DNA from: Bacillota bacterium
GTDB lineage: Bacteria > Bacillota > Clostridia > Christensenellales > SZUA-584
Assembly: GCA_023460085.1 (NCBI GenBank)
Contig: JAEWRI010000022.1
Span: forward strand, 135,487 to 199,486
Direction of reading: 5' to 3'
Length of the DNA: 64,000 nt
In this document: piece by piece, positions 9,498 to 44,574 of the stretch
Numbering within the stretch: position 1 is the stretch's first letter
Layout of the letters: the number at the start of each line of letters is the position of its first letter
Made by a program: the position numbers and the translations under genes
The notes under the pieces: generated by a model
What the model saw: the letters and a program-made list of their open reading frames with translations, nothing else
The model's database searches: none
Told to the model about the DNA's origin: nothing

Positions 9498-10010
9498 TTA
9501 CGCAGTCTGAGCCTTCATCCACCGGAAGAAATCCGGCGAAAGCGCCTCATAATAGGGCATGAGCCCTGCCGGCACCGTTTGCGCCATCAGCAGGCTGAAC
9601 TCACGGAGTTGCTTCATCTGCGCTTCGTCCAGCGTTTCCGCGAAAGCAAAGGCGCGAACCGCTTCGCAGGCTTCCTCCATGCGCTTTAAAAGCTCGCCCT
9701 GCTCCCTCGCAGATTTCGCGGAGGGCACGCTGTAATCCACCATCTGTTCGAGCGGATACTGCTTCGTGTCCATAAAGTCCCGAACGGCGCAATATTGAAA
9801 CGAAAATACCCTGCCGTGCTCGGAGGAAATGCTGGCCCACGCGTAAGGACGCACTCTCTTCGTGTTGAACGTATTGGGATAAAAGAATACGCGCTCCGTA
9901 CGCAATCCATTCTCCATGCACGGCACCGGCTGCGATACGGAATATCCGCCGCCTTCCAATGCGCGCACGCCCTTTGTCACTGCCGATTTGATATCCTGTA
10001 AACTTTTCAT
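9498..10010 (-). CDS. Hypothetical 171-aa protein, paralog of 15059..15499 (candidate partner/immunity-like protein of the upstream papain-like protein)
   Basis: ATG 10010 follows a GGGAGAA SD, 18 nt after the upstream stop. By-eye homology to the 147-aa ORF: VRPYAWASISSEHGRVFSF vs YRPCGMVGVPFGGTRILAY, and TVPAGLMPYYEALSPD vs MLPPGTRQFYQSIIPE. Confidence 0.6.
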   Translation of the reverse strand: MKSLQDIKSAVTKGVRALEGGGYSVSQPVPCMENGLRTERVFFYPNTFNTKRVRPYAWASISSEHGRVFSFQYCAVRDFMDTKQYPLEQMVDYSVPSAKSAREQGELLKRMEEACEAVRAFAFAETLDEAQMKQLREFSLLMAQTVPAGLMPYYEALSPDFFRWMKAQTA

Positions 10011-10027: not shown

Positions 10028-10759
10028 TCAAGCCGCGCGCGTGGCTTCGTCGGTTACGACCACGGAAGCCCCTGATATACTTGCATAGCATGCGTCCATC
10101 TCTTCCACGCTGACATAGCGGCAATTATCGCCATCCGCCCAGCGCCCGCTGTCGCAGATGTAGAACCCCGTTATCTCCCCTGTCTCGGCATCCCGAGCCG
10201 CGCTGGTAACCACAATCTGATGGTTTGCGCTGCCGTCATTGATATAATTTGCGTCGTTCCACAAGTAACCGGCGTTAACGCCCATCGTCACGCATTGACC
10301 ATTCTCCAGCGCCGCGGCGATATCCTCATATGTGCCGCCCGCCTCACCCGGATAATACGCCTGCGCGTCAATCCCGTAATGATCCAGCAGCGCGATAAGG
10401 TACTCGTCGTTGACTCCGCCCCTGGCTTCCGGCGGCAGCATGGGATCGTTATTGCACCAGCCATTGTCGATGGCCGTCTGCACAACATCGTCTTCCGTCG
10501 CGTCGATTCCCGAAAGCTGCAGAATATTGGACACGCTGACCAGCCCGCAGTCGCTCTGATACCCGTATGCGTTGTCACCCTGCTGGTAATCGAGCAGCGG
10601 CGCCACCGAGAACGGATCGCTCGTGGCGACCGATTCCCCGTTTTCATCGATAACCGGCTCGTACTGTTCCAGATCATTGGCCAGCTGCTCCGGGTGCTGT
10701 TCTCCAAACGCTTCTTCGATTCCGTCTCTCACAAGTTCAACCAGGCCCGGGATCTCCAT
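10028..10759 (-). CDS. Papain-fold (C39-like) cysteine peptidase-like protein, no signal peptide
   Basis: YQSDCGLVSVSNILQLSG (Cys71, codon 10547-10549), GSANHQIVV (His180) and FYICDSG (Asp203) give the Q..C / H / D order of C39-like peptidases. Acidic 60-aa N-terminus. AAGGAG SD. Confidence 0.6.
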   Translation of the reverse strand: MEIPGLVELVRDGIEEAFGEQHPEQLANDLEQYEPVIDENGESVATSDPFSVAPLLDYQQGDNAYGYQSDCGLVSVSNILQLSGIDATEDDVVQTAIDNGWCNNDPMLPPEARGGVNDEYLIALLDHYGIDAQAYYPGEAGGTYEDIAAALENGQCVTMGVNAGYLWNDANYINDGSANHQIVVTSAARDAETGEITGFYICDSGRWADGDNCRYVSVEEMDACYASISGASVVVTDEATRAA

Positions 10760-10815: not shown

Positions 10816-13800
10816 TTAAGACTTCTCCTTTTTTGCCGCCAAAGCCGCATTTTTAGCGGTGTATGCGTACCACCGATAATAGAACGCACGGATTTGTTTA
10901 TTGCCCGCTGCATAATACATCAATACCAGGCTTTCCATCGCGCGCACCGCAGCGGCATCCGCCGCGGCATATGCCGCGATGGCGGCATCCGCCGTTTCAT
11001 TCCAGGCGGCGATATTATCCATCGGAGTTTTGATAATCTCTGCGCCTTTGATCACCAGGTTAACGAGCCTGCACTGCGTACCGAAATCGTTCCACTCCTC
11101 AAGCACCGCGCTTTCACCGTATCGTTTGAGTACTGAAGCCAGCGCCGCGTCCTCCGGACTTCCGCTGGCAGAAAGAATATCCTGGCTGGCTTCCCGTATT
11201 TCCGTTGGAATTATCTCCGCCTTGGTGCGGTTGCAGAGCAGCACCTCCAGCGCTGTACCGCGCGCCCGCCGCAGGGTCTCACCGCTCGCCGCAGGCCGGT
11301 CATATACAAAAGGCGCGTATTTTTCCGGGGGATAATACTCTGCCATACAAAGCACCGGCGAAAGCCAATTTCCCTGATGAAACACCGCGACGCCGGTATC
11401 CAAGCGCGCAATCTCCCCAATCTGCTCCACACTCAAGCCCATCGCCTTGCCTACAGCGCGCCGGTCGTCCTCATCCGGCAGCTTGAACACCACTTTCGTA
11501 TTGGTATTGCGGATTACGGAGCGATCCATAACCGACGGAGACTGATCCGCTATGATAAAACTCTCGCCGTAGGTGCGCATCTCCGCGATGGCGTTGGTAA
11601 GTATCTCCACGGACATACCCTGAAGGTTTGCGCTTTCCATGGACTGCGCGCCGCTCACAGCTTTCAGCAGATGGTGCGCTTCCTCCAGAAGCGTAACATG
11701 GCGCAGACGGCTGTTGATCTCCTCGCAGCGTGTCACGCGATGCTCCTGCAGACGGATGATGAGCATGCCCATGATAAGCGACTTGGTCTCGGATGAGCCC
11801 AGACGGCTGATATCGATGATGGCGTTGCTGTCGAACAGCGCTTCATCCGACACCTCAGTGCGGCAGAACAGCTGTCCGCAGATACCGTTCGCCATCGACT
11901 TCACGCGCGTCACCAAAGCGCCGATATAGTTACCCTGAACCTCCGCCGAAAACTCCGTCTGTTTGAGAACACGTGGCAGCGTATCGGCCAGCGTCGCAAA
12001 CGTCGGGAAGCGCTCCGTCGGGTACCGGCAGATGCTCTCGTCCAGATCCCACCCGCATTCGCGGTACGAAAGCTCTATGGCCTCCTTCAGAAATTCCGGC
12101 ATCGCCGCGTACATCGGCCAGCTCGCGTTGAATACGCCCAGCAGCCGGTCGATATGCTCCAGCACGTGAATGCCCTTCGGGAAGGCAAACGGGTTGATGC
12201 CGAGCAGCGGAGATACCGCCTTGTTTGTGCCATACACGCGCACGTCTTCCCGTCCGCCGAATACGCGCGCATATTCGCCCTTAGCCGGTTCAATTACGAG
12301 AAACTTAATCCCGTTTTCCAGCAGGCGATTGAGCAGTACGTAGCACATATTGGATTTGCCTGATCCGGTGGTGCCCGTGATAAACATGTGTTTGCTGAGT
12401 TCATCGAGCGAAAGCTCCACCTCGAAGTCTTCTGTGTTGCCCATGTGCACGATACGGCCCACTTTGACGCCTGTCTGCACTGCGTCGTTCTTCTTGATGA
12501 TGTCCCTCGCAAACTCTGCGTGGGTATCCACCATCATGCCGGGCAGCGCCTTGCGGGGCCATGCCACGTGCACCGACATCTCCTGCGCGGTGGACAACGT
12601 GGCGGGCGTCACCTGCGGCAGCTCAAACCCGCCGCCGGAGAACGAAAACGCGGGATGCAGCATACGCTTTAAATATTCGGTCAGCGTGGAAACCGTCTGC
12701 GGTTCGTTCCATACGTTGATATATGATATGTTGGCGTCCGGTGAATACCCGGTGAGCAGCGATCGGTATATGCTTGCGCACATGCGGGCTGTGGCATTGT
12801 CCGCCGCGAGGATATACGCCGCACATTGGTACGCGCCGCCGCCCTCGCAGAGCTTGATTCTATCCAGCTGTACATCGATGGCCTTGAGGATATTGCCGAT
12901 AGCCTTGTTTTCGTAATGATACTGCACCGTAGAGCCTTTGGTCTGTGCGCTGCCTTCCGTGGTGCTGTTGGAACGTGCCGTGCTGTCGCTGGTGCCTCTG
13001 GAATCGCTCATTCCCTCCGATTCGCTCGTATCGTCGTGCGATGACGTGGTGCGGGATACGTTCGATTTTCCGCCCGCGAGCGTCTGATACGTTTTGGAAA
13101 CATTGTTGCCAAACGTGCTGACCACCAGCGGCCCAAAATTACCGATGCCCGGCAGAAACGCCGAACCCACCATGCCTGCCAGCGTTGCCGCTGTAATGAG
13201 TACTTCCGCCTTTTTGTTCTTGTCGGTATGCTCCTCTTTGGAGGTGGAATCGCTCGAAGAGGTACCGGTGCTGCGGGAACGGTTTGTGGTGGTGCCCGTA
13301 GTCAGCGACACCGACTGGGTTACCGTATCCCCCAGCGTTTTGGAGAAATTCAGCGTATCCGTCTCCGACAGCGACTGCTGAGATTTGTAGAACGGGGTGA
13401 GCTGGGTGTATAGTGTTTCATAGCCGCTCCGCATGCGCGCCAGCGTCTCATGCGCCACGGAGGACGCCAGCACCACCAATGCGAACGGCTGTCCGCGCAT
13501 GCCGTCCACCAGCTTTTCGATGCCCTGCAGATACACACCCCCCGCGTTATCCGCGCGCACGGAGGCCATACTGGAAACTGAAGCTACTGCCACCTCTCCG
13601 CTGTCAAACAGCGTATCCAGCAGCTTCTCGTTGTGCCTTGTAAATAGCTGCTCCGATTTACAGCCCGGAAAATGACCATCCACCGCGTGGCGCATCGTCT
13701 CAAACGCGTTGGTAAGCACCTGTGTATCCGTGCAGGCTGTGCCCATATACACGTCCGTCTTCACGCCATCGTGATGTACAATGAACACAGCGCTGCAGTC

Positions 13801-14097
13801 CACCGCGGAAACCGCACTGAAAACGCCGGACAGCTTGCTCAGCACATCCTCCCGGGAATCATAATTCAACGTAGAGAAATGAAGCAGGCGCACCCGGTCA
13901 CGAGGCTCCGCTGCAGCCAGCTCCTGCCGGGGCAGCGGTACTATCTGCGCATTCTCCAGTTGAGAAAGATACTGCATACGCACAAAGATATCCGCCATCC
14001 CGAGTGATTCCATCATACGCTGCTGAGATGGCGCAATGCGATTGTTGTTCTCCGTCACAGCCCTGCTCTTATACACATCGATTTCGTTGTCTTGCAT
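10816..14097 (-). CDS. HerA/FtsK-superfamily (DUF87-like) P-loop ATPase with a large novel N-terminal region and a hydrophobic segment
   Basis: Walker A GTTGSGKSN (12349-12375, verified on DNA). It is preceded by a HAS-barrel-like VKVGRIVHMGNTEDFEVELSLDEL and followed by LVIEPAKGEY. Walker B-like VTLLEEAHHLL. Hydrophobic AEVLITAATLAGMVGSAFLPGIGNFGPLVVSTFG (~13108-13209) is flanked by Ser/Thr-rich tracts. ATG 14097 follows a GGGAGGG SD (the ORF-track start 14148 overlaps the upstream gene). Confidence 0.75.
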   Translation of the reverse strand: MQDNEIDVYKSRAVTENNNRIAPSQQRMMESLGMADIFVRMQYLSQLENAQIVPLPRQELAAAEPRDRVRLLHFSTLNYDSREDVLSKLSGVFSAVSAVDCSAVFIVHHDGVKTDVYMGTACTDTQVLTNAFETMRHAVDGHFPGCKSEQLFTRHNEKLLDTLFDSGEVAVASVSSMASVRADNAGGVYLQGIEKLVDGMRGQPFALVVLASSVAHETLARMRSGYETLYTQLTPFYKSQQSLSETDTLNFSKTLGDTVTQSVSLTTGTTTNRSRSTGTSSSDSTSKEEHTDKNKKAEVLITAATLAGMVGSAFLPGIGNFGPLVVSTFGNNVSKTYQTLAGGKSNVSRTTSSHDDTSESEGMSDSRGTSDSTARSNSTTEGSAQTKGSTVQYHYENKAIGNILKAIDVQLDRIKLCEGGGAYQCAAYILAADNATARMCASIYRSLLTGYSPDANISYINVWNEPQTVSTLTEYLKRMLHPAFSFSGGGFELPQVTPATLSTAQEMSVHVAWPRKALPGMMVDTHAEFARDIIKKNDAVQTGVKVGRIVHMGNTEDFEVELSLDELSKHMFITGTTGSGKSNMCYVLLNRLLENGIKFLVIEPAKGEYARVFGGREDVRVYGTNKAVSPLLGINPFAFPKGIHVLEHIDRLLGVFNASWPMYAAMPEFLKEAIELSYRECGWDLDESICRYPTERFPTFATLADTLPRVLKQTEFSAEVQGNYIGALVTRVKSMANGICGQLFCRTEVSDEALFDSNAIIDISRLGSSETKSLIMGMLIIRLQEHRVTRCEEINSRLRHVTLLEEAHHLLKAVSGAQSMESANLQGMSVEILTNAIAEMRTYGESFIIADQSPSVMDRSVIRNTNTKVVFKLPDEDDRRAVGKAMGLSVEQIGEIARLDTGVAVFHQGNWLSPVLCMAEYYPPEKYAPFVYDRPAASGETLRRARGTALEVLLCNRTKAEIIPTEIREASQDILSASGSPEDAALASVLKRYGESAVLEEWNDFGTQCRLVNLVIKGAEIIKTPMDNIAAWNETADAAIAAYAAADAAAVRAMESLVLMYYAAGNKQIRAFYYRWYAYTAKNAALAAKKEKS

Positions 14098-14108
14098 GTT
14101 GCCCTCCC

Positions 14109-15062
14109 TTAAAGCAGGCTTTCCTGCAAATCCCAGATTTGATCGCATATCTGAAAGATATACGAGTCTTCATACCGGCTCTTGAGCTGGCCTGCGGCTT
14201 TCGCCATCTCTTCTACAACCCCGACTGCCTGTGACGGAAGATATACTTCGCTGACGTAACGGTCAAACGCCTGCAAAATGCCTTCGGCATCTGCCGCTAT
14301 CGCACAATCGGCGCAGAGCCTGAGCGGAATATCCAGCTGTTCCATGAGCGCCGAACACTTTGTCCGGTTCGCGTCCGTCCCGTCACCCACCAGGCACAAT
14401 AATATGAATAAATCCCCCGCGTCCCGCTCCGTTTCCATGGCCGACTGCAAATCGTCCTGCAAATCGCGTGGCAGCCTGGATGCATCCAATACAACAACGG
14501 ATATTCCCCGCCGATTCAAGGCTGCGCCTCGTTCCTTCAGAGATACGTCAAGGTCCTCAGGCATTCCAGCCATATCATGCAACGCTGTTGGGAATACGCT
14601 CATCCTGTCGCGGAGTTTTTTCAGTCCCTCGTACCCGTCGCCATCCAGGCGCTGTACAACCGTATCGATAAAATCATCCAGCACAGCACGGATATTCTTC
14701 ACCATTCCCCTGGGAGATTCCGGCAGGACATGACTTACCTGTGCGGAGGTCTCCATGCCGCGGCGCGCCAGCGATTCCTGCTGCGCCGCCATCACCTCGC
14801 GCAGCGTCTGAAAATCCCTTTCCCGCCCATGAAATGTAATGACAAAGGTATCGTCGTTCAGTTCGCGCACAAGCTCCGGAAGTATCCCCTGCCATTTCTG
14901 AAAACCCCGGCTGTAAGGATAAAGCCACTCATAGAAGTTTTTTCTGACAACGAAAGCGGTTAATCGGTTTTCGTTGCTCTCTACATTCATGCCGTCGATG
15001 ACGAGGCGCGTCAGCTGTCCTTCTCTCCGGAAGGGGCTTACGGTGATCTCTATCCGCTTCAT
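14109..15062 (-). CDS. Hypothetical 317-aa protein (no recognisable family)
   Basis: A long ORF in the operon frame with host-like codon usage. The start shares ATGA with the upstream stop. No motif recognised. Confidence 0.6.
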   Translation of the reverse strand: MKRIEITVSPFRREGQLTRLVIDGMNVESNENRLTAFVVRKNFYEWLYPYSRGFQKWQGILPELVRELNDDTFVITFHGRERDFQTLREVMAAQQESLARRGMETSAQVSHVLPESPRGMVKNIRAVLDDFIDTVVQRLDGDGYEGLKKLRDRMSVFPTALHDMAGMPEDLDVSLKERGAALNRRGISVVVLDASRLPRDLQDDLQSAMETERDAGDLFILLCLVGDGTDANRTKCSALMEQLDIPLRLCADCAIAADAEGILQAFDRYVSEVYLPSQAVGVVEEMAKAAGQLKSRYEDSYIFQICDQIWDLQESLL

Positions 15063-15499
15063 TTCAGTCCCGCCTTTTCAGGGATTATACTCTGGTAGAA
15101 TTGCCGGGTTCCCGGGGGCAGCATGTCCAGCAGCTGCAGCTGCAGCAATTCGCATTGCGCCGCATCCGCCGAATCCCAGGCCGCCAGACGGGAATAATAG
15201 TTGTCCATTCGCTGCGCATCTCCGGAATACAGCGGCGTATCGCTCCCTGTTTCGCTCTGCAGCCACTGGGCAGCGCTGTATGCCAGAATCCGTGTGCCGC
15301 CAAACGGTACGCCGACCATGCCGCAGGGACGATATCCGCCGTCCGGCAGCGGTTCGAAGAAAGGCAGCAGCAGCGCACGGTCTCCGCTCTTTATTACAGG
15401 GATAGGATATCCCATCACGGCAGCGGAAGGAAGCAGCAGGCATATCATGCGGGAATACCGGAGATCGTGAAGCCAGTTAAAAAACTCTTCGGTTTTCAC
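15059..15499 (-). CDS. Hypothetical 147-aa protein, paralog of 9498..10010
   Basis: GTG 15499 overlaps the upstream stop (GTGA) and follows a GGAGGT SD at 6-nt spacing. Homology to the 171-aa ORF is described there. Confidence 0.55.
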   Translation of the reverse strand: MKTEEFFNWLHDLRYSRMICLLLPSAAVMGYPIPVIKSGDRALLLPFFEPLPDGGYRPCGMVGVPFGGTRILAYSAAQWLQSETGSDTPLYSGDAQRMDNYYSRLAAWDSADAAQCELLQLQLLDMLPPGTRQFYQSIIPEKAGLK

Positions 15500-16116
15500 T
15501 TGTACACCTCCAGTATCCATCCGTTCTGCGAGATCATCGCAACCGCGTCCTTATTGAGCGATATCCATTGCCCGCCCTCCATGGAATGATCCGATACCAC
15601 AACCCCTTCTCTGTCGGCGGCAACCACTTGGACCGTGTGCAGCCCGGGGACCTCATAACCGGAATCATCCGGCTGCGCCGTCACCTGCCGCCAGAGCTGG
15701 TCGGGTACATAAGCCATCACCGATCCGTCGGCTCGCAGGCAGGCGGCGATGTTGGCCTCCGAAAAACGGGAAACCTGCACGTAGCATTCCTTTTCCAGCA
15801 GCTCCACAGCGTCCAGCATACCCGGCGCGGTATTCAAGCCTTCTGCCCACGCAAAGCCCGTCTGCTCAGTCATCACATCGCGCAGTGTCATGGATGCTGC
15901 CTCCGCCTGGCTTTCGGTAAACCGCCATGCCTCCGGCTGAATATCTGCCACGTCCTTCGGATCAAACCCTTCCATGGTCACGCGCAACACTTCCGGTTCT
16001 CCGGTTTCATTAACTCTCAGCACCTCAGAAGCAAACCGCGCTTTTTCTGAAACCTCATTTTGAATTCCGTCACGCGGCTCGAAACCCTTGCCCGGAATTT
16101 CATCAAACGGCGGCAC
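15496..16116 (-). CDS. Papain/C39-like paralog lacking the aligned nucleophile Cys (putative pseudo-peptidase)
   Basis: By eye it aligns with 10028..10759: ANIAACLRADGSVMAYVPDQLW vs EDIAAALENGQCVTMGVNAGYLW, and GLHTVQVV/VVVSDHS vs ANHQIVV/FYICDSG. Phe sits at the position aligned to Cys71, and there is no Cys in the first 112 residues. GTG 16116 follows a GGAGG SD at 8-nt spacing (ORF-track start 16125). Confidence 0.5.
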   Translation of the reverse strand: MPPFDEIPGKGFEPRDGIQNEVSEKARFASEVLRVNETGEPEVLRVTMEGFDPKDVADIQPEAWRFTESQAEAASMTLRDVMTEQTGFAWAEGLNTAPGMLDAVELLEKECYVQVSRFSEANIAACLRADGSVMAYVPDQLWRQVTAQPDDSGYEVPGLHTVQVVAADREGVVVSDHSMEGGQWISLNKDAVAMISQNGWILEVYK

Positions 16117-16825
16117 GGTCGTCACCTCCCGTCAGCATTCGCAACAGCACGGGATAGCCCGCCTTGCTTGCGAAAAGCGTTTTTCCGGATTTCAGTGTGA
16201 TCGCTTTGGTGCTTTTATCCACATGGGCGATATGCGACAGATTGACCAGATAGCTCTTATGGCAGCGGCAGAACACGCCCGATGGCAAGGTATGCTGCAC
16301 GTCGTCCAGCTTTGCGGTAAACGTCTGCGTCTGATTGTCGTTCATATGCACATGCACGATCCGGTAGTCGCTCTCAAAGTAGTCGATGTCCGCATAAGGC
16401 AGACGCAGTATCTCCGCCTTGGATTCATAGCTGAAGCAGGATTGCCCGCCTTCCATCCAAGATAAGGCTTTTCTCAGCGCATCGATGAAATTCTCGGCGC
16501 CGGCATCCCGCAGCACATAAGCAATGGGCAGCGTATAGAATGCCTGCAGCACCGTATCGTCCGATCCGTCGATATACACTATCGTGCAGTCCCGGTTATT
16601 CTCCCTCACCTTTTCTCCGATTGATAGCCCCTCGCCGTCCGCCGGGAGCACGAGCAGGTCGAGATTGTATTCCTCCTGCTCCAGCGCTTCCTCCAGTAGC
16701 CCTCTGCGCAGATAAGCCGTTATGATCGCGCGGTGATCCTGCTGAAACACCGTATCCGCGATGAGCCGCTGCAGGCTCTTGGCGGCTTCCAGCTCACGCA
16801 GGTATATGCAGATCCGTATCCTCAT
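16103..16825 (-). CDS. LytTR-family DNA-binding regulator with degenerate receiver-like N-terminal domain
   Basis: C-terminal LytTR motif (FCRCHKSYLVNLSHIAHVD). The N-terminal ~120 aa is receiver-like, but the expected phospho-acceptor region reads LDLLVLPADGEGLS with no Asp in the LLVLP stretch. No histidine kinase gene is nearby. Confidence 0.8.
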   Translation of the reverse strand: MRIRICIYLRELEAAKSLQRLIADTVFQQDHRAIITAYLRRGLLEEALEQEEYNLDLLVLPADGEGLSIGEKVRENNRDCTIVYIDGSDDTVLQAFYTLPIAYVLRDAGAENFIDALRKALSWMEGGQSCFSYESKAEILRLPYADIDYFESDYRIVHVHMNDNQTQTFTAKLDDVQHTLPSGVFCRCHKSYLVNLSHIAHVDKSTKAITLKSGKTLFASKAGYPVLLRMLTGGDDRAAV

Positions 16826-16859: not shown

Positions 16860-18878
16860 TTACGCGCGCGCCCCGGACAGTATAATTTGTACCTGCTGCG
16901 GAACGTCTGATATGTTCGCTGCAGCCTTCTCCAGGCTGGCTTTCCTGCGCGTTACTTCCTCTTCACCCTTGCGTTTTTCCTCCAGAATGCTCTGGATATC
17001 CGTCTCAATCTGTTTGATATCGGCAAACGCGCACTCACCCACGGTGTCCCTGAGGTCCTTTATCTTGCCGTTGATCTGGTTGAAGATTTTATCGTTGAGC
17101 TCCATGGTGCGCGCTGAATCGTTCAGCATCGTACGGTATTCCTTCGTCACCTTGTTGGTAATCGAATTCTGCAATTTGGAGAGCGTCCATCCGATTCCCA
17201 CCACAGTGGACAGCAGCGTACCCACCACAATGGCGCCAAGGCCGATGGGTGTAAAGCATGCCGCGATGCCCAGCGCGATTCCCGTTGCCAGCTGAAGCCC
17301 CAATGTGCGGAACATTGCTTCCTTGCCCAGCACACCGCCCACCAGCGCGGTCAGTATATCCCCCGTGAAAAGCGCGTAAACCACAGAGGCAACCTTTGTG
17401 GCATCGGAGGACAGTTTCTCCGTTTCCGCGCTGTGCCGGAAATTCAGGTCCACCTTGATATCCGTGATCACGCTGGAGAGCTCCGCCGCACGCGATTCCA
17501 GTTTTTTCGCCACGCCCTGTATCCCTTCGTTCAATTTTGGCAGCAGCGTTTCCTTCGTCCACTGTATCGAGAAGGTATTGAATTTATTCTGCAGATAGCT
17601 GCTGTATTCATCAGAAATCGCTTTCGCCGTGCGCTTCAAATGCATCAGTTCCGTCGTCACAGAGCATACGTACTCGCTTTGCCACTGATTCAGATTCTTG
17701 GCGGCTTCCGTGGTCAGCGTGCTGATGACAGGCTTAACGCCCTCCAGCGACTTGTCCAGCTCAATGTTAAATTCGCTGGCGAACAGCTCCGCCTTCTTTT
17801 TGGCCAGCTCCATCTTTTCGCTGACGCTGCTGATGCGCGCCTCAAACTCGGCCAGCGGGAGATCCACCGTATTCAAGTGCTCGCGTATGGTCTGCGCGCC
17901 TTCCCTGCTGATAATCTCCATCTGCGCGGCAATGGCGCTCAGTTTCTCATCGCCCTTGCACTTTACCAGAAATTCTTCCAGGTATTTCTCCATCTTCAGG
18001 TATCCGGACTCCAGCAGGAGTTCCTTGTTTTTGTCGCGCTTCGCCTTGATTGCCTGCAGCGAGGATACGAAGAATACGCCGTTTCCGCCCAGCTTCTCCG
18101 TATATTCAGGCTGCATCAGCCGAGTGCTCTTCTTCAGGTTGCGGTTGATGGTATCGATGGCTTCTTCCACATCCGCCGCCGAAGGCGATTCATCCTTGAT
18201 GTTATCGAAGCGGGTAACGACAAATATCGGCGTATTGTACCCACGCAGGTTGATATCGGCGATAGTATCCACATCCAGCTTCGTGTAGGGCTGCACTCCG
18301 TTCAGGCAATATATGATGGCATCCGCGGAGGGCAGGTATTCCAGCGTGATGGTATCGTGGCTGTTGGGGTCGTTGAGTCCCGGGGAATCCACTACCTCTA
18401 CGCCGTCCTTCAGCATTTCCAGCGGCCAGTATACCTCCATCTTTCTGAAAGGGGACTCAATGACGTTGCCTTCCTTGTAGTTCGCCGCGCCCTGCTTGTG
18501 ATCGATGAGGCAATAGTCGCGTATCCTGTCGATGGGCACGTCAAAAGGTTCGTCGCCACCTTCCCACTTGCCCGGCACGGGGTACACCACCACACGCTTG
18601 TCCTGCGCGTATTTGATCTCCGTGATCAGCGCGGTGGCAGGCATCACCTTGGTGGGGAGTATGGGTTCGCCTAAAAACGCATTAATCATAGAGGATTTTC
18701 CGGAGCTGAACTGCCCCATGATCAGTATGCGGAAAGTCTTGTCGGCGATCTTTTCCTTGCTGGTCATGATCATCTGGATCAGATCATCCCGTGTGCCCAC
18801 CGTATCGATAATTTGTTTTTGCATATCCAGCTGCCGGTCGATGGCTTCCGCAGCATTCTGGTAAGACTTGATATTCAT
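16860..18878 (-). CDS. Bacterial dynamin-like protein (DLP-3)
   Basis: G1 GQFSSGKSS (18693-18716), G3 DSPG and G4 TRFD. Long helical stalk. Gly/Ala-rich hydrophobic hairpin near the C-terminus (LGLQLATGIALGIAACFTPIGLGAIVVGTLLSTVVGIGW). Confidence 0.85.
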   Translation of the reverse strand: MNIKSYQNAAEAIDRQLDMQKQIIDTVGTRDDLIQMIMTSKEKIADKTFRILIMGQFSSGKSSMINAFLGEPILPTKVMPATALITEIKYAQDKRVVVYPVPGKWEGGDEPFDVPIDRIRDYCLIDHKQGAANYKEGNVIESPFRKMEVYWPLEMLKDGVEVVDSPGLNDPNSHDTITLEYLPSADAIIYCLNGVQPYTKLDVDTIADINLRGYNTPIFVVTRFDNIKDESPSAADVEEAIDTINRNLKKSTRLMQPEYTEKLGGNGVFFVSSLQAIKAKRDKNKELLLESGYLKMEKYLEEFLVKCKGDEKLSAIAAQMEIISREGAQTIREHLNTVDLPLAEFEARISSVSEKMELAKKKAELFASEFNIELDKSLEGVKPVISTLTTEAAKNLNQWQSEYVCSVTTELMHLKRTAKAISDEYSSYLQNKFNTFSIQWTKETLLPKLNEGIQGVAKKLESRAAELSSVITDIKVDLNFRHSAETEKLSSDATKVASVVYALFTGDILTALVGGVLGKEAMFRTLGLQLATGIALGIAACFTPIGLGAIVVGTLLSTVVGIGWTLSKLQNSITNKVTKEYRTMLNDSARTMELNDKIFNQINGKIKDLRDTVGECAFADIKQIETDIQSILEEKRKGEEEVTRRKASLEKAAANISDVPQQVQIILSGARA

Positions 18879-18918: not shown

Positions 18919-20478
18919 TTATTCCTCCGCCATGAACTCGTTCAGTATCGCGTCGCACTCCATTGCCAGCACGGAATAGCGTTTAAATGCTTCTCCCATT
19001 TTTCTTTCCTCTTCGCCCTCACCGCTGCCCTTCTGGACGCTTGCGGCCAGCTGCGCATCCTTAACTGCCAGCAGCAGCGAAGCATAGATATAGTCCACAT
19101 TCTTTGAGAACGCTTCGAAGTTACTGCCCACGCATTTGACAACATACCGGCGGACTTCCGCTTCCAGCTCCTTCATTCTGTCCTTGTTGTTGCCATGCTC
19201 GACAATGGACCAAAAACCGGTGGCGACGGTAGCGCCTCCCGCCAGCATAGTTGCCGAGAAAATCGCGATGCCGTTGATGATGAAAACCGGCGCGAAAAGT
19301 ATGCTGGCTGCCAGCGCGGCAGAGGAGAACACCAACCCGGTGAACGCCATACGCTTCATCTTCTCGGGGTCGCTGCTCTTTGGCTCCGGCGCTCCGGGGC
19401 TGCCGAACGCGGATGCTTCGTAACCCGGCAATGTGTTCAGTTTCACACCAAATGCCTGCTCGACGTCCGATATCAGCGTTTTACGGTCTTCAACGATCCG
19501 TTCGCTGAGGGCACGGTTGACGCTGCCTGAAATCTTCTGCAGCTCCACCGCCATGTCGTGTTCCAGCTGCCGGTTCCACCAGTCCTTTTTCGAAGACGCC
19601 AGCGACATCTTCATTACCAGACTGTCACCTATCTCCGCTACGGCCTTCTCCCGGATCCGGTTGATCTCAGCCAGCGCTTCGTTATTTTTTTTCTTGACGC
19701 GCAGCTCGATTTCCTGCCATTGCGTTTCATTGATTTGCGCGCGCACCTTTCCGCTCTCACGGGTTTTAGCACAATCATTCAGCGCCTGCTTTGCCTGCTG
19801 CTGCAAGGCGGAAATACGGTTCTTTACCGCCGAGGCGAACCCCATGCAAAGCAGCATCTCTTTAACATCTTCCACGCTTTCGTGCGCACAGAGCATGCTG
19901 AGCAGTGCCTTGCCCATGCCCTTGTCGTCCTTGCGAATCAGCGCCAGTTCGTCGGTACCGAAGAGCGCGCTCAGCTGCGTCTTTACGTAATCCTCTGCTT
20001 CCGCCTTATCTTCGTCATTCAGCAGCTCCATTTTATTGAGGGCAATGGTGCAAGGGATACCATAGGTAATGCAAGTGCGTATAGCGGCGACATCTCTCGC
20101 GGAAAGCGGAGCGGCGGCGGACAGCAGGAACAATGCCGCGTCTACCCCCCAAAGCACACAGTCGGCGTCTCCCGGCTGTATGTTTTCATACTCCTCAATG
20201 GCGATCTCCGCGCAGGTAATCTCTGTGCCGGGAACTTCCGCTGAAAGCTTGGAATCATGCGTGGACGATACCATTGATACCGGCATTGTCGCGCTGCCCA
20301 AAATCATATTTGCCACTGTGCTTTTTCCGGAGTTGGTATCGCCCAGCACCGCAAATACTTTGCCATGCTTGCACCGGACTTCGTCGCGTTTTCCGTTGTA
20401 TCGACTCGCAATATCCCCGCTGCCAATCTCCGCGGCAAGCGACGTCAGTTTGCTGAACATATCCTCAGGTATTAACAT
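18919..20478 (-). CDS. Dynamin-like GTPase with divergent G3 motif (DLP-2)
   Basis: G1 GDTNSGKST (20320-20343) and an NKME G4-like motif. The expected DxxG position reads VDAAL. C-terminal hydrophobic hairpin (LVFSSAALAASILFAPVFIINGIAIFSATMLAGGATVATGFW). The start overlaps the DLP-1 stop (ATGTTAA). Confidence 0.7.
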   Translation of the reverse strand: MLIPEDMFSKLTSLAAEIGSGDIASRYNGKRDEVRCKHGKVFAVLGDTNSGKSTVANMILGSATMPVSMVSSTHDSKLSAEVPGTEITCAEIAIEEYENIQPGDADCVLWGVDAALFLLSAAAPLSARDVAAIRTCITYGIPCTIALNKMELLNDEDKAEAEDYVKTQLSALFGTDELALIRKDDKGMGKALLSMLCAHESVEDVKEMLLCMGFASAVKNRISALQQQAKQALNDCAKTRESGKVRAQINETQWQEIELRVKKKNNEALAEINRIREKAVAEIGDSLVMKMSLASSKKDWWNRQLEHDMAVELQKISGSVNRALSERIVEDRKTLISDVEQAFGVKLNTLPGYEASAFGSPGAPEPKSSDPEKMKRMAFTGLVFSSAALAASILFAPVFIINGIAIFSATMLAGGATVATGFWSIVEHGNNKDRMKELEAEVRRYVVKCVGSNFEAFSKNVDYIYASLLLAVKDAQLAASVQKGSGEGEEERKMGEAFKRYSVLAMECDAILNEFMAEE

Positions 20479-22343
20479 GCCAATTCTCTCCTTACTGAAA
20501 ACAGTTTTAAATTCTGTATCTGCTCTTCTATTTCCTTCGTATAACGGCCGTTATCCGCTATTTCGCGGTTCAGCCGCATCTTCTTTTCTTCATACATCTT
20601 CAGCGCGTCATTGTACAGCTGCGAATAGATAGCCATATAGTGTCTTGACATCTCTTCCAGTCGCGTGATGCTCTTATCAATGCATTGCACCGTCATAGGT
20701 ATACACTCGCCGGATATTCTATCCGAGATCGTGGGCAGCTGCAAACGTACTTGCTGTACAAAATCTGCCCGCGCCTTTTTCATAAACAGTTTGTCCTTGC
20801 CGAGGTACCCGACGATTCCCCCCACAACCGCGCCTATCGGCCCTCCCAATATCAGGCCGATGGCCGCTGCGCCCCCGCTTGTCAGCACGGTATTCTGCGT
20901 TTCTACTTTTGCGTAGCTTTCACGCACCTGCGCCAGCGAGCTCCCAATCTTCTCTTGGAGGGGTTGAGTCATCGCCGAGGACGCCGCATTCTGAAGCAGC
21001 GCCGCGTTGCCAATGCGTCCATAGCAGGTTTCCAGTTCCCGCTGCATATGATCCCCTGTCCAGTTTACCAGACCTTGCGCAGAGTCTGCCACCTGCTGGC
21101 TGTATCGATAGTACGCGGGCGTCTGATTGGCAATATCGCCTGCAAGACCGTCCGTCCGCGAGGCGTATACTTTAAAATCGGCATGGCTGCTGAACGCGGA
21201 GACACGGTATTCCACCGCCTGCAGCATATAGCTCTCCATCTCTCTCCGTGTCACTCGTTCATTTTCCTTATATACGCCGCGCATTTCCCACAGCCGGTTG
21301 CTCTCCTGTACCTTAATGTCGGCCAGCTTTTTGGCCAGCTGCGGCGGCGCGTTTTCTTCCAGCACCTTAAGGCTGGACTGAAGCGCCTGCGTCTGCTGCG
21401 CAACGCCATCCTTCATCACACCCAGCATCTGTCTCAGCAGCTCTGCCATACGGCAGCTCAGTATGAACTCCCGCTGCTCCCGCAGATGCGTAAAAAGTGC
21501 CTCCCGCAGTGCGTTCAACCTGCGCGCCCACACTTCGTCCTTGCCCGCAAGATACGCCGAGCAGGAAACCAGCAGCGGATCCCGAATTCCCAGCTTTTCC
21601 TGTATATTTTCTCGAACGTACTGCTCCAGTTCTTCCCGCTCGTCCTCCTCCACCCTGTCCATCATAGTGAGCACAAACACCGCATGGTTCATAAACCTTT
21701 CGGCGTTTTCCTTCAGAAACAGTTCAAAGCTGTATGTATAAGCCTGCGTAGCGGGAAAAAGGATGATTACAGAGTCCGCCGCATGTTCAAGCACCTGCTT
21801 GGTGCGCGTTACATGCAGCTCGGAATTCTCCTGACCGGGATTGACTCCGGGGGTATCGATAATGCACAGATTGCCCAGCGCGCCGCTGTCCGGCAGGAGC
21901 ACATCCACCCGCGCGGTGCGGTGCGCTACGGATTCACGAGTAGTTACTGTATTGAGGTTTTCCTTAAAATCACTGCCAAGTGTGATATTGCACACTTCGC
22001 AAAAGGACTGCGCCTCCTGCGCATCATTCAAGTGATACCGCTTTCCGTCGTTGAGTTCAATATGCAGTTCGGCGGTTTCATAAGGCCCGCCTTGAATGTA
22101 CGTGGGAATTGCCGTGGTTGCCATGATTCCGGTTTTCAGACAGTCATATCCGCAGAGCGCGTTGATCAGCGTGCTTTTTCCCGAGCTGAAGTCGCCAATA
22201 ACCGCCAGCTTCAGCGTGGTATCCGCATGCTTTTCCGCGATATCATTTCTTTGCTTTTTCAGTTCTGCCAGCGTGTCTGCCCGCCATGGAAACTCTGTAA
22301 AAAGGCGGCCGGCATACTGTATACTGCGCTCGATTTGATTCAT
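20472..22343 (-). CDS. Bacterial dynamin-like protein (DLP-1)
   Basis: G1 GDFSSGKST (22173-22196, verified on DNA), G3 DTPG and a G4-like TMMD. Helical stalk. Gly-rich hydrophobic segment GGAAAIGLILGGPIGAVVGGIVGYLG. Confidence 0.85.
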   Translation of the reverse strand: MNQIERSIQYAGRLFTEFPWRADTLAELKKQRNDIAEKHADTTLKLAVIGDFSSGKSTLINALCGYDCLKTGIMATTAIPTYIQGGPYETAELHIELNDGKRYHLNDAQEAQSFCEVCNITLGSDFKENLNTVTTRESVAHRTARVDVLLPDSGALGNLCIIDTPGVNPGQENSELHVTRTKQVLEHAADSVIILFPATQAYTYSFELFLKENAERFMNHAVFVLTMMDRVEEDEREELEQYVRENIQEKLGIRDPLLVSCSAYLAGKDEVWARRLNALREALFTHLREQREFILSCRMAELLRQMLGVMKDGVAQQTQALQSSLKVLEENAPPQLAKKLADIKVQESNRLWEMRGVYKENERVTRREMESYMLQAVEYRVSAFSSHADFKVYASRTDGLAGDIANQTPAYYRYSQQVADSAQGLVNWTGDHMQRELETCYGRIGNAALLQNAASSAMTQPLQEKIGSSLAQVRESYAKVETQNTVLTSGGAAAIGLILGGPIGAVVGGIVGYLGKDKLFMKKARADFVQQVRLQLPTISDRISGECIPMTVQCIDKSITRLEEMSRHYMAIYSQLYNDALKMYEEKKMRLNREIADNGRYTKEIEEQIQNLKLFSVRRELAC

Positions 22344-40895: not shown

Positions 40896-40918
40896 AATAA
40901 AAGTTTTTTATCGTTATG

Positions 40919-40954
40919 AAGGGCTTGAAGATCACTTCAAAAGCCTTTTATTTT
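40919..40954 (+). terminator. Hairpin + T-run in the ABC-F leader (candidate attenuator, or the terminator of the AraC gene)
   Basis: aagggcttgaag / cttcaaaagcctt stem with a 2-nt bulge, followed by ttttatttt. It lies between the candidate promoter and ATG 40976. Confidence 0.4.
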
Positions 40955-40975
40955 GTCAAATTATGCGGAGGATTT

Positions 40976-42529
40976 ATGAGTATATTAAACGTCGAACATG
41001 TAACCCATGGCTTTGGAGCCAGGTGCATTTTAGAAGATGCATCTTTCCGCCTTTTAAAGGGCGAACATGTTGGACTGGTCGGCGCCAATGGCGAAGGAAA
41101 ATCCACATTTTTAAATATCATTACCGGCAGGCTTATGCCAGACCAAGGCACGGTTGAGTGGTGTAATCGTGTGACGACTGGTTACCTTGATCAGTACACG
41201 ACCCTGACCAAGGGAAAGACAATCCGTGAGGTCCTGCGTGAAGCCTTTCAATATATGGTCGACCTTGAAACCGAAATGAATGCGATGTACGACCGTATGG
41301 CATCCTGCAGCGAAGATGAGATGACCTTGCTCTTAGAAGAAGCCGGTGACATACAACACAACCTTGAGCATAATGGTTACTACACCATTGACTTTAAAAT
41401 CGAGGAGATTGCGAACGGGCTTGGTCTTTGTGATATCGGGTTAGATCGCGATGTTACAGACCTTAGCGGAGGTCAACGTGTAAAAGTATTACTTACCAAG
41501 CTGCTGCTTCAAAACCCGATGATACTCATTTTGGACGAGCCGACGAATTTTTTAGATGAAAACCACATTGTATGGTTGAAAAACTATTTGCAGGAGTACG
41601 AAAATGCCTTCATAGTGGTATCGCATGATGTATCTTTTTTAAATGATGTCGTAAATGTTATATATCACGTCGAAAACGCCCAGTTTACACGATATACAGG
41701 AAATTATGAGCAGTTTCAAGAAATGTACAACCTGAAAAAGCTTCAGTTGGAAAAAGCGTATGAACGCCAGCAAAAAGAGATTGGCCAATTGGAAGATTTC
41801 ATAGCACGCAACAAGGCGCGCGTGGCTACTTCCAATATGGCCAAAAGCCGTCAGAAGAAGCTGGACAAGATGGAAATCATCGAGCGCGTAAAAGAAAAAA
41901 TAAAGCCAACCTTCAAGTTTTCCGAAGCGAGAACACCGGGAAAAATGATAGTGAGCGCGCAGGATTTGGTTTTGGGTTATGGTGAGCCTTTGACAAAACC
42001 CATCAACATCATGCTGGAGAGGAGCCAGAAGGTGGCTATCAAAGGCGTTAACGGGCTCGGCAAATCCACATTGTTAAAAACGTTACTGGGCATGATACCT
42101 CCGGTTTCGGGCGAATGTGAGCTTGACCCATATGTACATCCAGGTTATTTCGAACAAGAAGAGGTGTTAAGCGATAGGACTGCGCTCGATGAAATATGGG
42201 CTGAATTCCCGAGTTTGACAAACGCAGAGGTTCGGGCCGCGCTTGCCAGGTGCGGGCTGACCACAAATCATATCACCAGTCAGATGAAAGTACTGTCGGG
42301 GGGAGAAAATGCAAAGGTCCGCATTTGCAAGTTGATGCTTAAGGATGTGAACTTCTTGGTGCTGGACGAACCTACAAATCATCTTGATACTGACGCAAAG
42401 GAAGCGCTTCAAAAAGCCATTATCGAATTTAAAGGAACTGTTTTGCTGGTTTGTCATGAACCAGAGTTTTATGAAAGCTGGGTAACCCATGTCTGGAATG
42501 TGGAGAATTGGACAAATAAGATAGTATAA
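40976..42529 (+). CDS. ABC-F family ATPase (ribosome-associated; translation factor or ARE-type not distinguishable here)
   Basis: Two ABC cassettes (GANGEGKST / LSGGQRVK; GVNGLGKST / LSGGENAK) joined by a basic linker (FIARNKARVATSNMAKSRQKKLDKME). No TM domains. ATG 40976 follows a GGAGGA SD. Lower GC than its neighbours (25/60 in 40981-41040). Confidence 0.85.
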   Translation: MSILNVEHVTHGFGARCILEDASFRLLKGEHVGLVGANGEGKSTFLNIITGRLMPDQGTVEWCNRVTTGYLDQYTTLTKGKTIREVLREAFQYMVDLETEMNAMYDRMASCSEDEMTLLLEEAGDIQHNLEHNGYYTIDFKIEEIANGLGLCDIGLDRDVTDLSGGQRVKVLLTKLLLQNPMILILDEPTNFLDENHIVWLKNYLQEYENAFIVVSHDVSFLNDVVNVIYHVENAQFTRYTGNYEQFQEMYNLKKLQLEKAYERQQKEIGQLEDFIARNKARVATSNMAKSRQKKLDKMEIIERVKEKIKPTFKFSEARTPGKMIVSAQDLVLGYGEPLTKPINIMLERSQKVAIKGVNGLGKSTLLKTLLGMIPPVSGECELDPYVHPGYFEQEEVLSDRTALDEIWAEFPSLTNAEVRAALARCGLTTNHITSQMKVLSGGENAKVRICKLMLKDVNFLVLDEPTNHLDTDAKEALQKAIIEFKGTVLLVCHEPEFYESWVTHVWNVENWTNKIV

Positions 42530-43815: not shown

Positions 43816-44574
43816 TTAACCCTCCCATTTATAACCCATAGTGGTTATAGTTTGCTTTCCTGCTTTGCCATCAACCTTAATCTTCTTAGCTTTCTGAAAA
43901 GCTAAAACTCCTGCTTCTGTCTTACTGCCAAAAATACCATCTTCAGCACCGCAACTATACCCAAGCTTATTTAGGGTTTTTTGAAGCAATCTAATATCTT
44001 CACCTTCCATCTGTGGTGAAAGCTTCTTCAATACTCGATTAAAGATAACTGCGGCAGTAGCTTCAATTTCATCTTTAAAGTAAGTTGGTCTGCCGTAAGT
44101 GTTCCAGCCGCCTTGACTTAAAGGACGTTTTACAACACCATAGGCACTACCCCTAGCTTCAATTACATTTAAAGCATCGTCAACCACATAACCAATATGA
44201 TAGGCTTTACCCTTCTTAGTGCCGGTCTTATAGGTTTTAAATACCCAATCACCTTTCTTTAGTTCTGCCTTAGAAAGAATTGTGCATTTACCTTTAAGGC
44301 CGTTTGCGTTCATATCAACCTTGATAATACCTAGCTTCTGCAAGCTGTAGATACCCAAGCCGCTACAATCAAAGGCTTTTAACATCTCACCAAAACCAGC
44401 TTCAACTTGTTTCTTCCAATAAGCTACAGCACTGTTGCCGGTTGAAGTGGTCTTAGCACATTTCTTAATCCAAGCTTCTGTAATAGTTGGTTTTGTTTGG
44501 CCTTGTGCACCCCAAACATAGATAGAATGGTTTTTTACTTCCAGTTCTAATAGTTCAATAAATTCTTTTAACAT
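43816..44574 (-). CDS. Endolysin: NlpC/P60-type cysteine peptidase + PG_binding_1 domain
   Basis: AFDCSGLGIYSL catalytic Cys motif and a His in GKAYHIGYVV. C-terminal LQKTLNKLGYSCGAEDGIFGSKTEAGVLAFQKA peptidoglycan-binding repeat. Confidence 0.85.
   Translation of the reverse strand: MLKEFIELLELEVKNHSIYVWGAQGQTKPTITEAWIKKCAKTTSTGNSAVAYWKKQVEAGFGEMLKAFDCSGLGIYSLQKLGIIKVDMNANGLKGKCTILSKAELKKGDWVFKTYKTGTKKGKAYHIGYVVDDALNVIEARGSAYGVVKRPLSQGGWNTYGRPTYFKDEIEATAAVIFNRVLKKLSPQMEGEDIRLLQKTLNKLGYSCGAEDGIFGSKTEAGVLAFQKAKKIKVDGKAGKQTITTMGYKWEG

Follow-up and report, generated by a model that had tools for sequence, protein, structure and literature searches.

A predicted membrane-tipped ATPase marks an apparently undescribed bacterial cassette of dynamin-like GTPases and swappable toxin/immunity pairs

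A motor ATPase whose N-terminal half is interrupted by a hydrophobic segment between two Ser/Thr-rich tracts raises the question of what this motor works on and where in the cell it does so. Such a protein is encoded in a stretch of 64,000 nucleotides from a member of the Christensenellales lineage SZUA-584 (Bacillota bacterium; GenBank assembly GCA_023460085.1, contig JAEWRI010000022.1, positions 135,487 to 199,486), referred to here as the window. The ATPase proved to be linked obligatorily to a leader-tagged, swappable toxin and its immunity protein, and frequently to dynamin-like GTPases (DLPs). The resulting cassette of dynamin-like GTPases, a membrane-tipped motor, and an exchangeable toxin/immunity pair is widespread and apparently undescribed, and probably represents a new bacterial way of handling or delivering toxins. 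For a cassette of polymorphic toxins that a pumping ATPase would power, we rate the hairpin/glycine-zipper insert of the motor and its dynamin partners as unprecedented. No description of the ATPase or the cassette was found in PADLOC, Pfam, NCBIfam, or the full-text literature (coverage mostly without subscription journals).

The gene lies on the minus strand in a single open reading frame (ORF; 10816-14148, 1110 amino acids), and the plus-strand frame across the same coordinates, with stops throughout, allows no reading. The ATG at 14097 is the likely start, because AGGGAGG lies just upstream and a 100%-identical protein of 1093 amino acids (P0001) begins there; the coordinates 10816-14097 given in an earlier note on this stretch correspond to that start. 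Every motif quoted in the note was located in the protein, with Walker A precisely at 12349-12375. Residue numbers in the list of these motifs (Table 1) refer to the 1110-aa ORF, all other residue numbers to the 1093-aa protein.

Family matches and conserved motifs place the protein in the FtsK/HerA/VirB4 superfamily, as an ATPase that has one P-loop and intact catalytic motifs. The match to Pfam DUF87 (E 6e-14; 53 bits versus a cut-off of 23) and the invariance of Walker A and Walker B across relatives, with GTTGSGKS and LLEEAH unchanged in 17 of the 17 relatives compared, bear out the initial assignment to the FtsK/HerA superfamily. By sequence, the motor is closest to HerA/DUF87, with 9x1l (5e-16) and 4d2i (7e-14) as sequence matches in the PDB. 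By fold, it resembles HerA, VirB4, and DndH (Foldseek E 1e-15 to 1e-12); the best match is the C-terminal domain of VirB4 (4ag5; TM score 0.72-0.73, 20% identity), followed by DndH-C (0.70) and HerA (4d2i; 0.54-0.55).

The N-terminal half of the protein is indeed unusual, as the earlier note had recognized, and its architecture differs from the one proposed there. Two AlphaFold2 models built on alignments of relatives, one of the N-terminal 533 residues and one of the full-length protein, agree in their layouts. The regions of ~250 and ~150 amino acids that had been described as separate form the halves of one alpha/beta domain (N-domain; predicted local distance difference test [pLDDT] 80-94), in whose second half G421, Y428, P482, P514, and G520 are invariant. 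The models contain no barrel where a HAS barrel had been suspected; VKVGRIVHMG is a beta-hairpin leading into the P-loop. The only PDB matches of the isolated N-domain at a probability of ~1 are TrwK/VirB4 chains (Foldseek), with a low TM score of 0.22, and its matches in BFVD are VirB4-like proteins from Bacillus phages. The full model aligns with TrwK/VirB4 of R388 over ~1050-1096 columns. As modeled, the two-domain plan is nearest to VirB4 by fold, though the resemblance is weak in absolute terms, and the motor is DUF87/HerA-like by sequence. The notion that the architecture is unlike VirB4 therefore does not hold at the fold level, where TrwK/VirB4 is the only confident PDB match of the N-domain and 4ag5 the best match of the motor.

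Such a fold would be expected if the protein were simply the VirB4 of a Gram-positive-type type IV secretion system (T4SS), as a remnant or variant. Besides the fold matches in both halves, this explanation can draw on a weak NCBIfam match to the VirB4 of a mycoplasma integrative and conjugative element (NF045975; E 2.6e-7) and on the presence of some copies on conjugative plasmids, but the NF045975 score is 28.8 versus a cut-off of 590, the Pfam family of VirB4 (CagE_TrbE_VirB) does not match, and a search of the PDB sequences with the N-domain profile returned nothing significant and no VirB4. Neither the window nor the ORF chains of 91 related loci contain VirB3, VirB6, VirB8, VirD4, a relaxase, or a cell-wall hydrolase, and Pfam and NCBIfam scans of the window neighbors found no partner genes of a T4SS or of a secretion system of type VII (T7SS). 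The known conjugation or secretion family with its partner genes nearby, which the earlier note had raised as a counter-case, was thus not encountered. With neither partner genes nor membership in a VirB4 sequence family to support it, a conjugation or T4SS remnant was rejected; we regard it as very improbable. VirB4/TrwK (7o42, 8rtd, 4ag5), in which a RecA-type motor likewise comes after an alpha/beta N-domain, is the best structural match, whereas the ATPase described here lies outside the VirB4 sequence families, has no T4SS partners, and carries a 156-aa insert and a 155-aa helical tail. We know of no VirB4 with a Ser/Thr-glycine-zipper insert or a helical tail. VirB4 works at the membrane, which it reaches via VirB3 and VirB8; by contrast, the ATPase of the window has a hydrophobic element of its own.

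In the AlphaFold models, the insert (residues 238-393, 156 aa) exits the N-domain from strand 238-250 and re-enters it at the neighboring strand 384-396. Ser and Thr account for 35% of its residues, compared with 13% in the remainder of the protein, and are concentrated in two arms that enclose a hydrophobic tip (Table 1). This arm-tip-arm layout was present in all 161 relatives in which the insert was delimited by flanking hidden Markov models, down to 24% identity, and the possibility of chance low complexity was rejected on these grounds. Across the 161 relatives, the insert measures 72-226 aa (median 149), with arms of similar mean length (54 and 52 aa) and a hydrophobic block of 41 aa (median). 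Relative to shuffles, the arms alternate Ser/Thr with a period of two residues (median z 7.6 in arm 1 and 4.2 in arm 2; z>2 in 91% of the first and 70% of the second arms), and they give no signal at a periodicity of 3.6 residues. In the window protein itself, z is 2.7 for arm 1 (10.6 in the best 24-aa window) and 1.1 for arm 2 (3.3 locally). Judged by this family-wide alternation, the Ser/Thr arms bear the signature of extended beta strands rather than that of the flexible linkers that had been assumed; AlphaFold draws long strands at residues 266-283 and 349-366 with low confidence.

The hydrophobic block is rich in Gly (21%) and Ala (17%) throughout the family. It contains GxxxGxxxG 180 times versus 43.5±7.3 in composition-preserving shuffles, and [GAS]xxxGxxx[GAS] 409 times versus 221±13, repeat counts by which the hydrophobic core is a glycine zipper. 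Its best 19-residue Kyte-Doolittle window in the protein studied here (1.66) is borderline for a transmembrane helix. An association of this conserved Gly/Ala-rich element with the membrane, as inferred previously, is plausible, but a single-pass crossing is excluded: the insert starts and ends in the same soluble domain, so that its hydrophobic part must dip into the membrane or form a hairpin. In three short variants (P0033, P0034, and P0035), the tip is too short for two helices, and hydrophobic and small residues alternate, by eye, as in a membrane beta-hairpin.

A more modest explanation, which we consider unlikely, is that the insert is a mere membrane tether, that is, a hydrophobic segment that dips into the membrane, is held by a pair of disordered Ser/Thr linkers, localizes an ordinary HerA-type motor, and has no role as a stalk, as a conduit, or in toxin translocation. 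The pLDDT of the insert (<30), the absence of a clear beta periodicity in the hydrophobic block, and the non-significant alternation in arm 2 of the window protein are in line with a tether. Glycine zippers, which are known in simple helical membrane hairpins, are found also in one of the dynamin-like GTPases of the same cassette (DLP1) and, among 72 partner proteins from related loci that were scanned, in 2. However, the period-2 pattern is family-wide, the arms have similar mean lengths, and both run straight on from two strands of the domain, which weighs against a disordered tether, because it needs none of these properties.

The C-terminal tail differs from the rest of the protein in its content of Ala (19.7% versus 8.2%), Trp (2.0% versus 0.4%), and Tyr (6.1% versus 2.8%), in agreement with its first description, and is the least conserved part of the protein (mean identity to relatives 18%). 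Single-linkage clustering of the tails for toxin-specific variants gave one cluster only.

A search for proteins that share the N-terminal region, followed by a record of their gene neighbors as the earlier note had envisaged, revealed a large family in a conserved cassette context. The N-terminal profile retrieved 1990 cluster representatives at E<=1e-3, of which 743 reached E<=1e-30. Among the matches listed, nearly all proteins with this region are ~1000-1150 aa long, so that its fusion to the motor is apparently constant. Relatives are encoded in at least 578 of the 185,579 species genomes. Among the matches listed, the hosts are mostly Bacillota (Lachnospiraceae, Oscillospiraceae, Clostridium, Paenibacillus, Bacillus), and the closest genome is the Bacillota metagenome-assembled genome (MAG) OH_PBB_276 (L015; ATPase 85% identical). 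Diderm hosts comprise Fusobacterium, Leptotrichia, Brachyspira, Treponema, Veillonella, Dialister, Fretibacterium, Colwellia, and Methyloprofundus. Plasmid-borne copies were found in Lactococcus cremoris, Bacillus, Exiguobacterium, Treponema, Ruminococcus albus, and Escherichia coli, and some of these plasmids are conjugative. The E. coli copy is located on the conjugative IncI-type plasmid pTW10590_133 of strain TW10590, which also carries etpB; the cassette (50.3-57.4 kb of the record, within locus L011 at 49.9-58.3 kb) is flanked by an IS66 transposase and repA, is complete with six genes (for two dynamins, a protein of 290 aa, the ATPase, a nuclease of the HNH/EndoVII type, and SMI1/KNR4), and lends itself to use as an experimental model. 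Relatives of the ATPase (40% and 30% identity) are encoded also on two contigs from human feces labeled "Bacteriophage sp." (MT837341.1 and MT836703.1; 7.1 and 9.1 kb), which are probably misassigned fragments of bacterial or plasmid DNA. A phage-encoded gene was rejected as an explanation, with matches confined to these two unannotated contigs.

In its common form, established over the 91 related loci, the cassette consists of six genes, which encode a small DLP, a large DLP, a protein of ~150-260 aa, the ATPase, a protein of 160-330 aa, and a protein of 95-150 aa. The ATPase gene and the next often overlap (-4 or -1 nt), in keeping with translational coupling, and a WYL regulator is often located upstream; in most relatives, the DLPs number two (a small and a large one). 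The first gene downstream of the ATPase (81 loci) encodes a Colicin-DNase/WHH protein in 38 cases, an LHH protein in 12, and an Endonuclease_NS_2 protein in 8, so that HNH or NS-type DNases make up 58 of the 81 downstream toxins (72%). The second downstream gene (70 loci) encodes SUKH/SMI1_KNR4 (29), DUF6985 (11), PoNi (2), or YezG (1), all of which are classic immunity families. These family assignments identify the gene after the ATPase as a swappable toxin and the next one as the matching immunity protein.

The toxins fall into 11 unrelated C-terminal clusters and share features at the opposite end. A short leader motif near the N-terminus (such as ELDKPI, LDRPLYE, or EADRPL; toxin genes of L010-L094) is present in 30 of the 81 toxins, compared with 2.7±1.6 in shuffles, at a median position of 35 and in at least seven unrelated toxin clusters. 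The first 80 residues have a mean net charge of ~-6, and an amphipathic start (MIExL...) and a PxFxKDLK element, both recognized by eye, often precede the motif. No LXG or WXG family is represented among the 81 toxins. A common N-terminal part, variable C-terminal domains, and a cognate immunity gene downstream, the defining properties of polymorphic toxins, are thus all found among the relatives.

The partner gene directly upstream of the ATPase belongs to one family ("NFSxERI", no Pfam match) in 58 of 72 loci and to the type of the 317-aa protein of the window in 11 loci. The first ~100 aa of the latter recur at the N-termini of the upstream proteins in all of these (BLAST; L002, L004, L008, L013, L015-L017, L030, L034, L052, and L059), on a Sel1-repeat protein in L004 and, in L008, as the N-terminus of an 841-aa dynamin-like protein encoded two genes upstream of the ATPase, which suggests that they form a docking domain. 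In three loci of the window-related sub-type, from MAGs of Lachnospiraceae and Oscillospiraceae (L030, L034, and L059), a dynamin-family GTPase of 616-637 aa, not a toxin, is encoded directly downstream of the ATPase.

The interpretation that we favor, and put forward tentatively, is that the ATPase is a translocase anchored in the membrane, which would take hold of the toxin leader, remove the immunity protein, and transfer the toxin to the membrane or across it. The ATPase would form a ring, as its relatives do, from which the inserts would project as long beta-hairpins with glycine-zipper tips that enter the cytoplasmic membrane; there, the tips would anchor the ring and may build a conduit. 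The ring would grip the acidic N-terminal leader of the toxin, pull the toxin off its tightly bound immunity protein, and push it to or through the membrane, and the dynamin-like proteins would reshape that membrane so that the toxin is released or delivered, through contact or in vesicles. The 243-aa putative cysteine peptidase would be the cargo in the window.

For such a translocase, the best functional analogy is EssC of the type VIIb secretion system. EssC/YukB belongs, like the ATPase of the cassette, to the FtsK/HerA superfamily, and both have neighboring genes for polymorphic toxins and cognate immunity proteins, including a pairing of Endonuclease_NS_2 with YezG/DUF600 as in EsaD/EsaG. 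Of this pair, EssC exports EsaD, the Endonuclease_NS_2 toxin, away from EsaG, an immunity protein of the DUF600/YezG type. EssC contains FHA domains, a pair of transmembrane helices, and three P-loop domains, and WXG or LXG domains are found in its substrates, whereas the ATPase described here has one P-loop domain, no FHA match, and no pair of transmembrane helices, and its toxins have a short linear leader instead of LXG. A role of FtsK/HerA ATPases in exporting such toxins has been stated (PMC3113570, PMC3482391).

Several observations weigh against a translocase. The identical cassette occurs in monoderm and diderm hosts without an outer-membrane component, and such an envelope-independent spread, typical of defense systems, is uncommon among secretion machines. 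WYL regulators often precede the cassette, some copies adjoin CRISPR or Abi genes, and the toxins are small and have no receptor-binding or entry domains. The hydrophobic block shows no general alpha or beta amphipathicity; a continuous beta-barrel is unsupported for most members of the family, because only 11% of the relatives reach a period-2 z>2 in this block. AlphaFold models the insert at a pLDDT below 30, and co-variation of the two arm lengths, which a hairpin predicts, was not apparent in a crude test with a noisy block caller (r -0.21). The putative assignment of effector and immunity protein in the window is based on gene position and one weak Pfam match.

Some of these points lead to an alternative in which the toxin acts inside its producer, in abortive infection against phages or plasmids, which we consider possible if somewhat unlikely. 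According to this explanation, the DLPs and the membrane-anchored ATPase would sense, or act at, DNA entry or membrane damage, and the ATPase might either free the nuclease from an antitoxin-like immunity protein or, like HerA-NurA, feed invading DNA to the nuclease. Its foremost argument is the occurrence of the same mobile cassette across phyla and envelope types without any change or outer-membrane component. It would also accommodate the WYL regulators upstream of many loci, the copies next to Cas9 or, on dairy Lactococcus plasmids, next to an Abi gene, and the predominance of DNases (72%) among the effectors. The closest solved relatives of the motor by sequence include defense HerA complexes, and the DLPs weakly match the LeoA and LeoBC models of Eleos. 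However, immunity proteins of the SUKH, PoNi, and YezG families, a shared leader combined with variable C-terminal domains, and tandem toxin/immunity pairs mark exported polymorphic toxins and are atypical of defense effectors. Toxin and immunity genes are co-transcribed, and mere induction would therefore not be lethal. The ATPase (apart from generic HerA/mad8 matches), the partner, the toxin, and the immunity protein are not represented by models in PADLOC, and the cassette of the window has a LytTR instead of a WYL regulator and an effector that resembles a peptidase rather than a nuclease.

Two further points of reference both differ from the cassette in their gene content. HerA, in archaeal HerA-NurA and in defense systems with Sir2 or DUF4297, is closest by sequence; it shares with the ATPase the P-loop motor, the presumed ring, and the location beside a nuclease or effector gene. 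However, the ATPase lacks the HAS barrel and scores only 38-56 with the HerA models of NCBIfam (cut-offs 800-970), and its partners are DLPs and toxin/immunity pairs, with no NurA, Sir2, or DUF4297 among the neighbors. LeoABC of enterotoxigenic E. coli (ETEC) and Eleos likewise combine two or three dynamin-like GTPases with hydrophobic paddles in one operon, but as described, these systems have no genes for an ATPase, a toxin, or an immunity protein. With the PADLOC models, which have no curated cut-offs, E-values are 4.5e-22 (LeoA) and 1.9e-15 (LeoBC) for DLP3 of the window, 3.9e-15 and 9.7e-11 for DLP1, and 2.7e-4 for DLP2; in the E. coli cassette, the small DLP matches the Eleos models at 5e-6 and the large DLP does not match. 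LeoA has been linked to toxin release via vesicles (PMC4159319), a second analogy for the translocase. A connection of the cassette to leoABC of ETEC strain H10407 was considered and dropped, since only 1 of the 5426 complete E. coli genomes has the cassette, on a plasmid, and the LeoABC paper mentions no ATPase.

The translocase reading can be extended to a delivery machine that is independent of the envelope type, an idea that we regard as rather doubtful. Here, a VirB4/HerA-type ring with a tube of Ser/Thr-lined beta-hairpins and zipper tips would thread leader-tagged toxins and strip off their immunity proteins, and the DLPs would fuse or bud the membrane towards neighboring cells. Ring and tube might then, with no greater likelihood, be compared to an ATP-driven, inside-out version of the anthrax protective-antigen translocon. 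In beta-barrel pore formers (the 2beta2-2beta3 stem of protective antigen, aerolysin, and alpha-hemolysin), an insert between strands likewise has alternating Ser/Thr residues and a hydrophobic tip, and the protective-antigen stem is similar in length to the ~55-residue arms. Of the properties of a pore-former hairpin, two period-2 arms flanked by strands of the parent domain were found, whereas an amphipathic, membrane-spanning tip was not: most tips are 40-aa Gly/Ala glycine zippers without beta amphipathicity. No homology to pore formers was detected, and the insert is fused to a cytoplasmic ATPase, not part of a secreted toxin.

The only curated model that spans both a Ser-rich insert and the motor is NCBIfam NF033849 ("ser_rich_anae_1"; residues 258-904 versus model positions 456-1104, E 6e-28), which means that NCBI has catalogued a related architecture, named by its composition only. 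With 96.8 bits versus a cut-off of 650, the window protein is not a member of this family, whose model has ~200 additional N-terminal positions.

In the window, the ATPase gene is part of a tightly spaced run of ten minus-strand genes (22343 to 9498), which encode, in 5' to 3' order, three dynamin-like GTPases, a LytTR regulator, proteins of 209, 153, and 317 aa, the ATPase, and proteins of 243 and ~170 aa (Table 1). This order is fully syntenic in L001 and L002, although their ATPases are only 48-50% identical. A promoter-like site (22430-22402) lies upstream of DLP1. All three DLPs carry a hydrophobic paddle segment, and DLP1 has a C19orf12-like glycine-zipper stretch (residues 481-543, E 3e-6). 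The LytTR regulator is located in the middle of the operon, whereas relatives of the six-gene type have an upstream WYL regulator instead; no receiver-domain model of Pfam or NCBIfam matched its N-terminal 137 residues. The 243-aa putative toxin contains the leader only as the loose look-alike LEQYEPVI, and a search of the PDB sequences with this protein returned nothing significant. The putative immunity protein is 72% identical to its counterpart in L015, where two tandem paralogous toxin/immunity pairs of the same papain-like type (L015:12337-15099; 71% and 81% identical to each other) take the place of the single pair in the window.

Table 1. Features of the ATPase, its operon, and the prophage of the window. 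Positions are those of the window; residue numbers refer to the 1093-aa protein unless marked ORF (1110-aa ORF).
Feature	Position	Strand	Size or residues	Evidence or remark
ATPase gene, cassette signature protein	10816-14097	minus	1093 aa + stop	Pfam DUF87 E 6e-14
N-domain, first half, alpha/beta	13378-14040	minus	20-240	AlphaFold2 pLDDT 80-94
Ser/Thr arm 1	13210-13386	minus	238-296, 59 aa	46% Ser+Thr
Hydrophobic Gly/Ala-rich tip, AEVLITAATLAGMVGSAFLPGIGNFGPLVVSTFG	13108-13209	minus	297-330	Kyte-Doolittle 1.66
Ser/Thr arm 2	12919-13107	minus	331-393, 63 aa	41% Ser+Thr
N-domain, second half	12508-12918	minus	394-530	pLDDT 73-94; conserved ENK...CEGxGAyxCAAY segment
P-loop motor domain	11308-12480	minus	540-930	Walker A + Walker B; Foldseek
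All-helical Ala/Trp/Tyr-rich C-terminal tail	10819-11283	minus	939-1093	helices at 939-1092
Ser/Thr tract 1	13231-13308		281-306 (ORF)	
Hydrophobic stretch	13108-13209		314-347 (ORF)	
Ser/Thr tract 2	12949-13056		365-400 (ORF)	
VKVGRIVHMG			561-570 (ORF)	
Walker A, GTTGSGKSN	12349-12375	minus		
LVIEPAKGEY			617-626 (ORF)	
Walker B, LLEEAHHLL	11665-11691		820-828 (ORF)	
Dynamin-like GTPase 1 (DLP1)	20472-22343	minus	623 aa	Dynamin_N E 4e-21
Divergent dynamin-like GTPase 2 (DLP2)	18919-20478	minus	519 aa	weak GTPase/Dynamin_N; syntenic in L001, L002
Dynamin-like GTPase 3 (DLP3)	16860-18878	minus	672 aa	Dynamin_N E 2.7e-26; hydrophobic paddle 496-567
LytTR-domain regulator	16103-16825	minus	240 aa	Pfam LytTR E 2.6e-19; conserved in L001, L002
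Conserved protein	15496-16125	minus	209 aa	syntenic in L001, L002; no Pfam/NCBIfam family
Conserved protein	15059-15520	minus	153 aa	syntenic in L001, L002; no Pfam/NCBIfam family
Partner protein	14109-15062	minus	317 aa	no Pfam/NCBIfam match
Putative effector/toxin	10028-10759	minus	243 aa	toxin slot; Peptidase_C39_2 E 0.006, below cut-off (weak papain/C39-like)
Putative immunity protein, start at MKSLQDIK	9498-10010	minus	~170 aa	immunity slot; no family match
Prophage large terminase	57654-58886	minus		
Prophage SPP1-type portal	56309-57643	minus		
Prophage Dit	48540-49394	minus		
Prophage baseplate/Gp37-like	46653-48536	minus		
Prophage NlpC/P60 + PG_binding endolysin	43816-44574	minus		

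Elsewhere in the window, the G+C content drops from ~55% to ~35% near 40-42 kb. The low-GC part (42500-64000) is a siphovirus-type prophage on the minus strand, which also encodes a tail-repeat protein. An ABC-F type double ATPase (ABC_tran x2 + ABC_tran_Xtn; 40916-42529, plus strand) is located at the transition, just before the prophage. The gap of 20 percentage points between host and prophage is large, and the assembly may be chimeric. No tRNA gene is present within the 64-kb window.

If the ATPase is a toxin translocase, the cassette would represent a new delivery route for polymorphic toxins beside T4SS, the type VI secretion system, T7SS, and contact-dependent inhibition. The cassette is frequent among Clostridia of the gut (Lachnospiraceae, Oscillospiraceae) and occurs also on plasmids of dairy Lactococcus and on the etpB-carrying plasmid of E. 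coli. The function of bacterial dynamin-like proteins has been in question since the work on LeoABC and BDLP, and a translocase would provide them with a concrete partner and task. If the cassette is a defense system instead, it would constitute a large unrecognized family and would explain the defense-associated appearance of some dynamin operons. The ATPase and the leader motif together form a genomic marker for new toxin/immunity pairs, and the predicted beta-hairpin stalk with its glycine-zipper tip would be a new mode of fixing a ring ATPase to the membrane.

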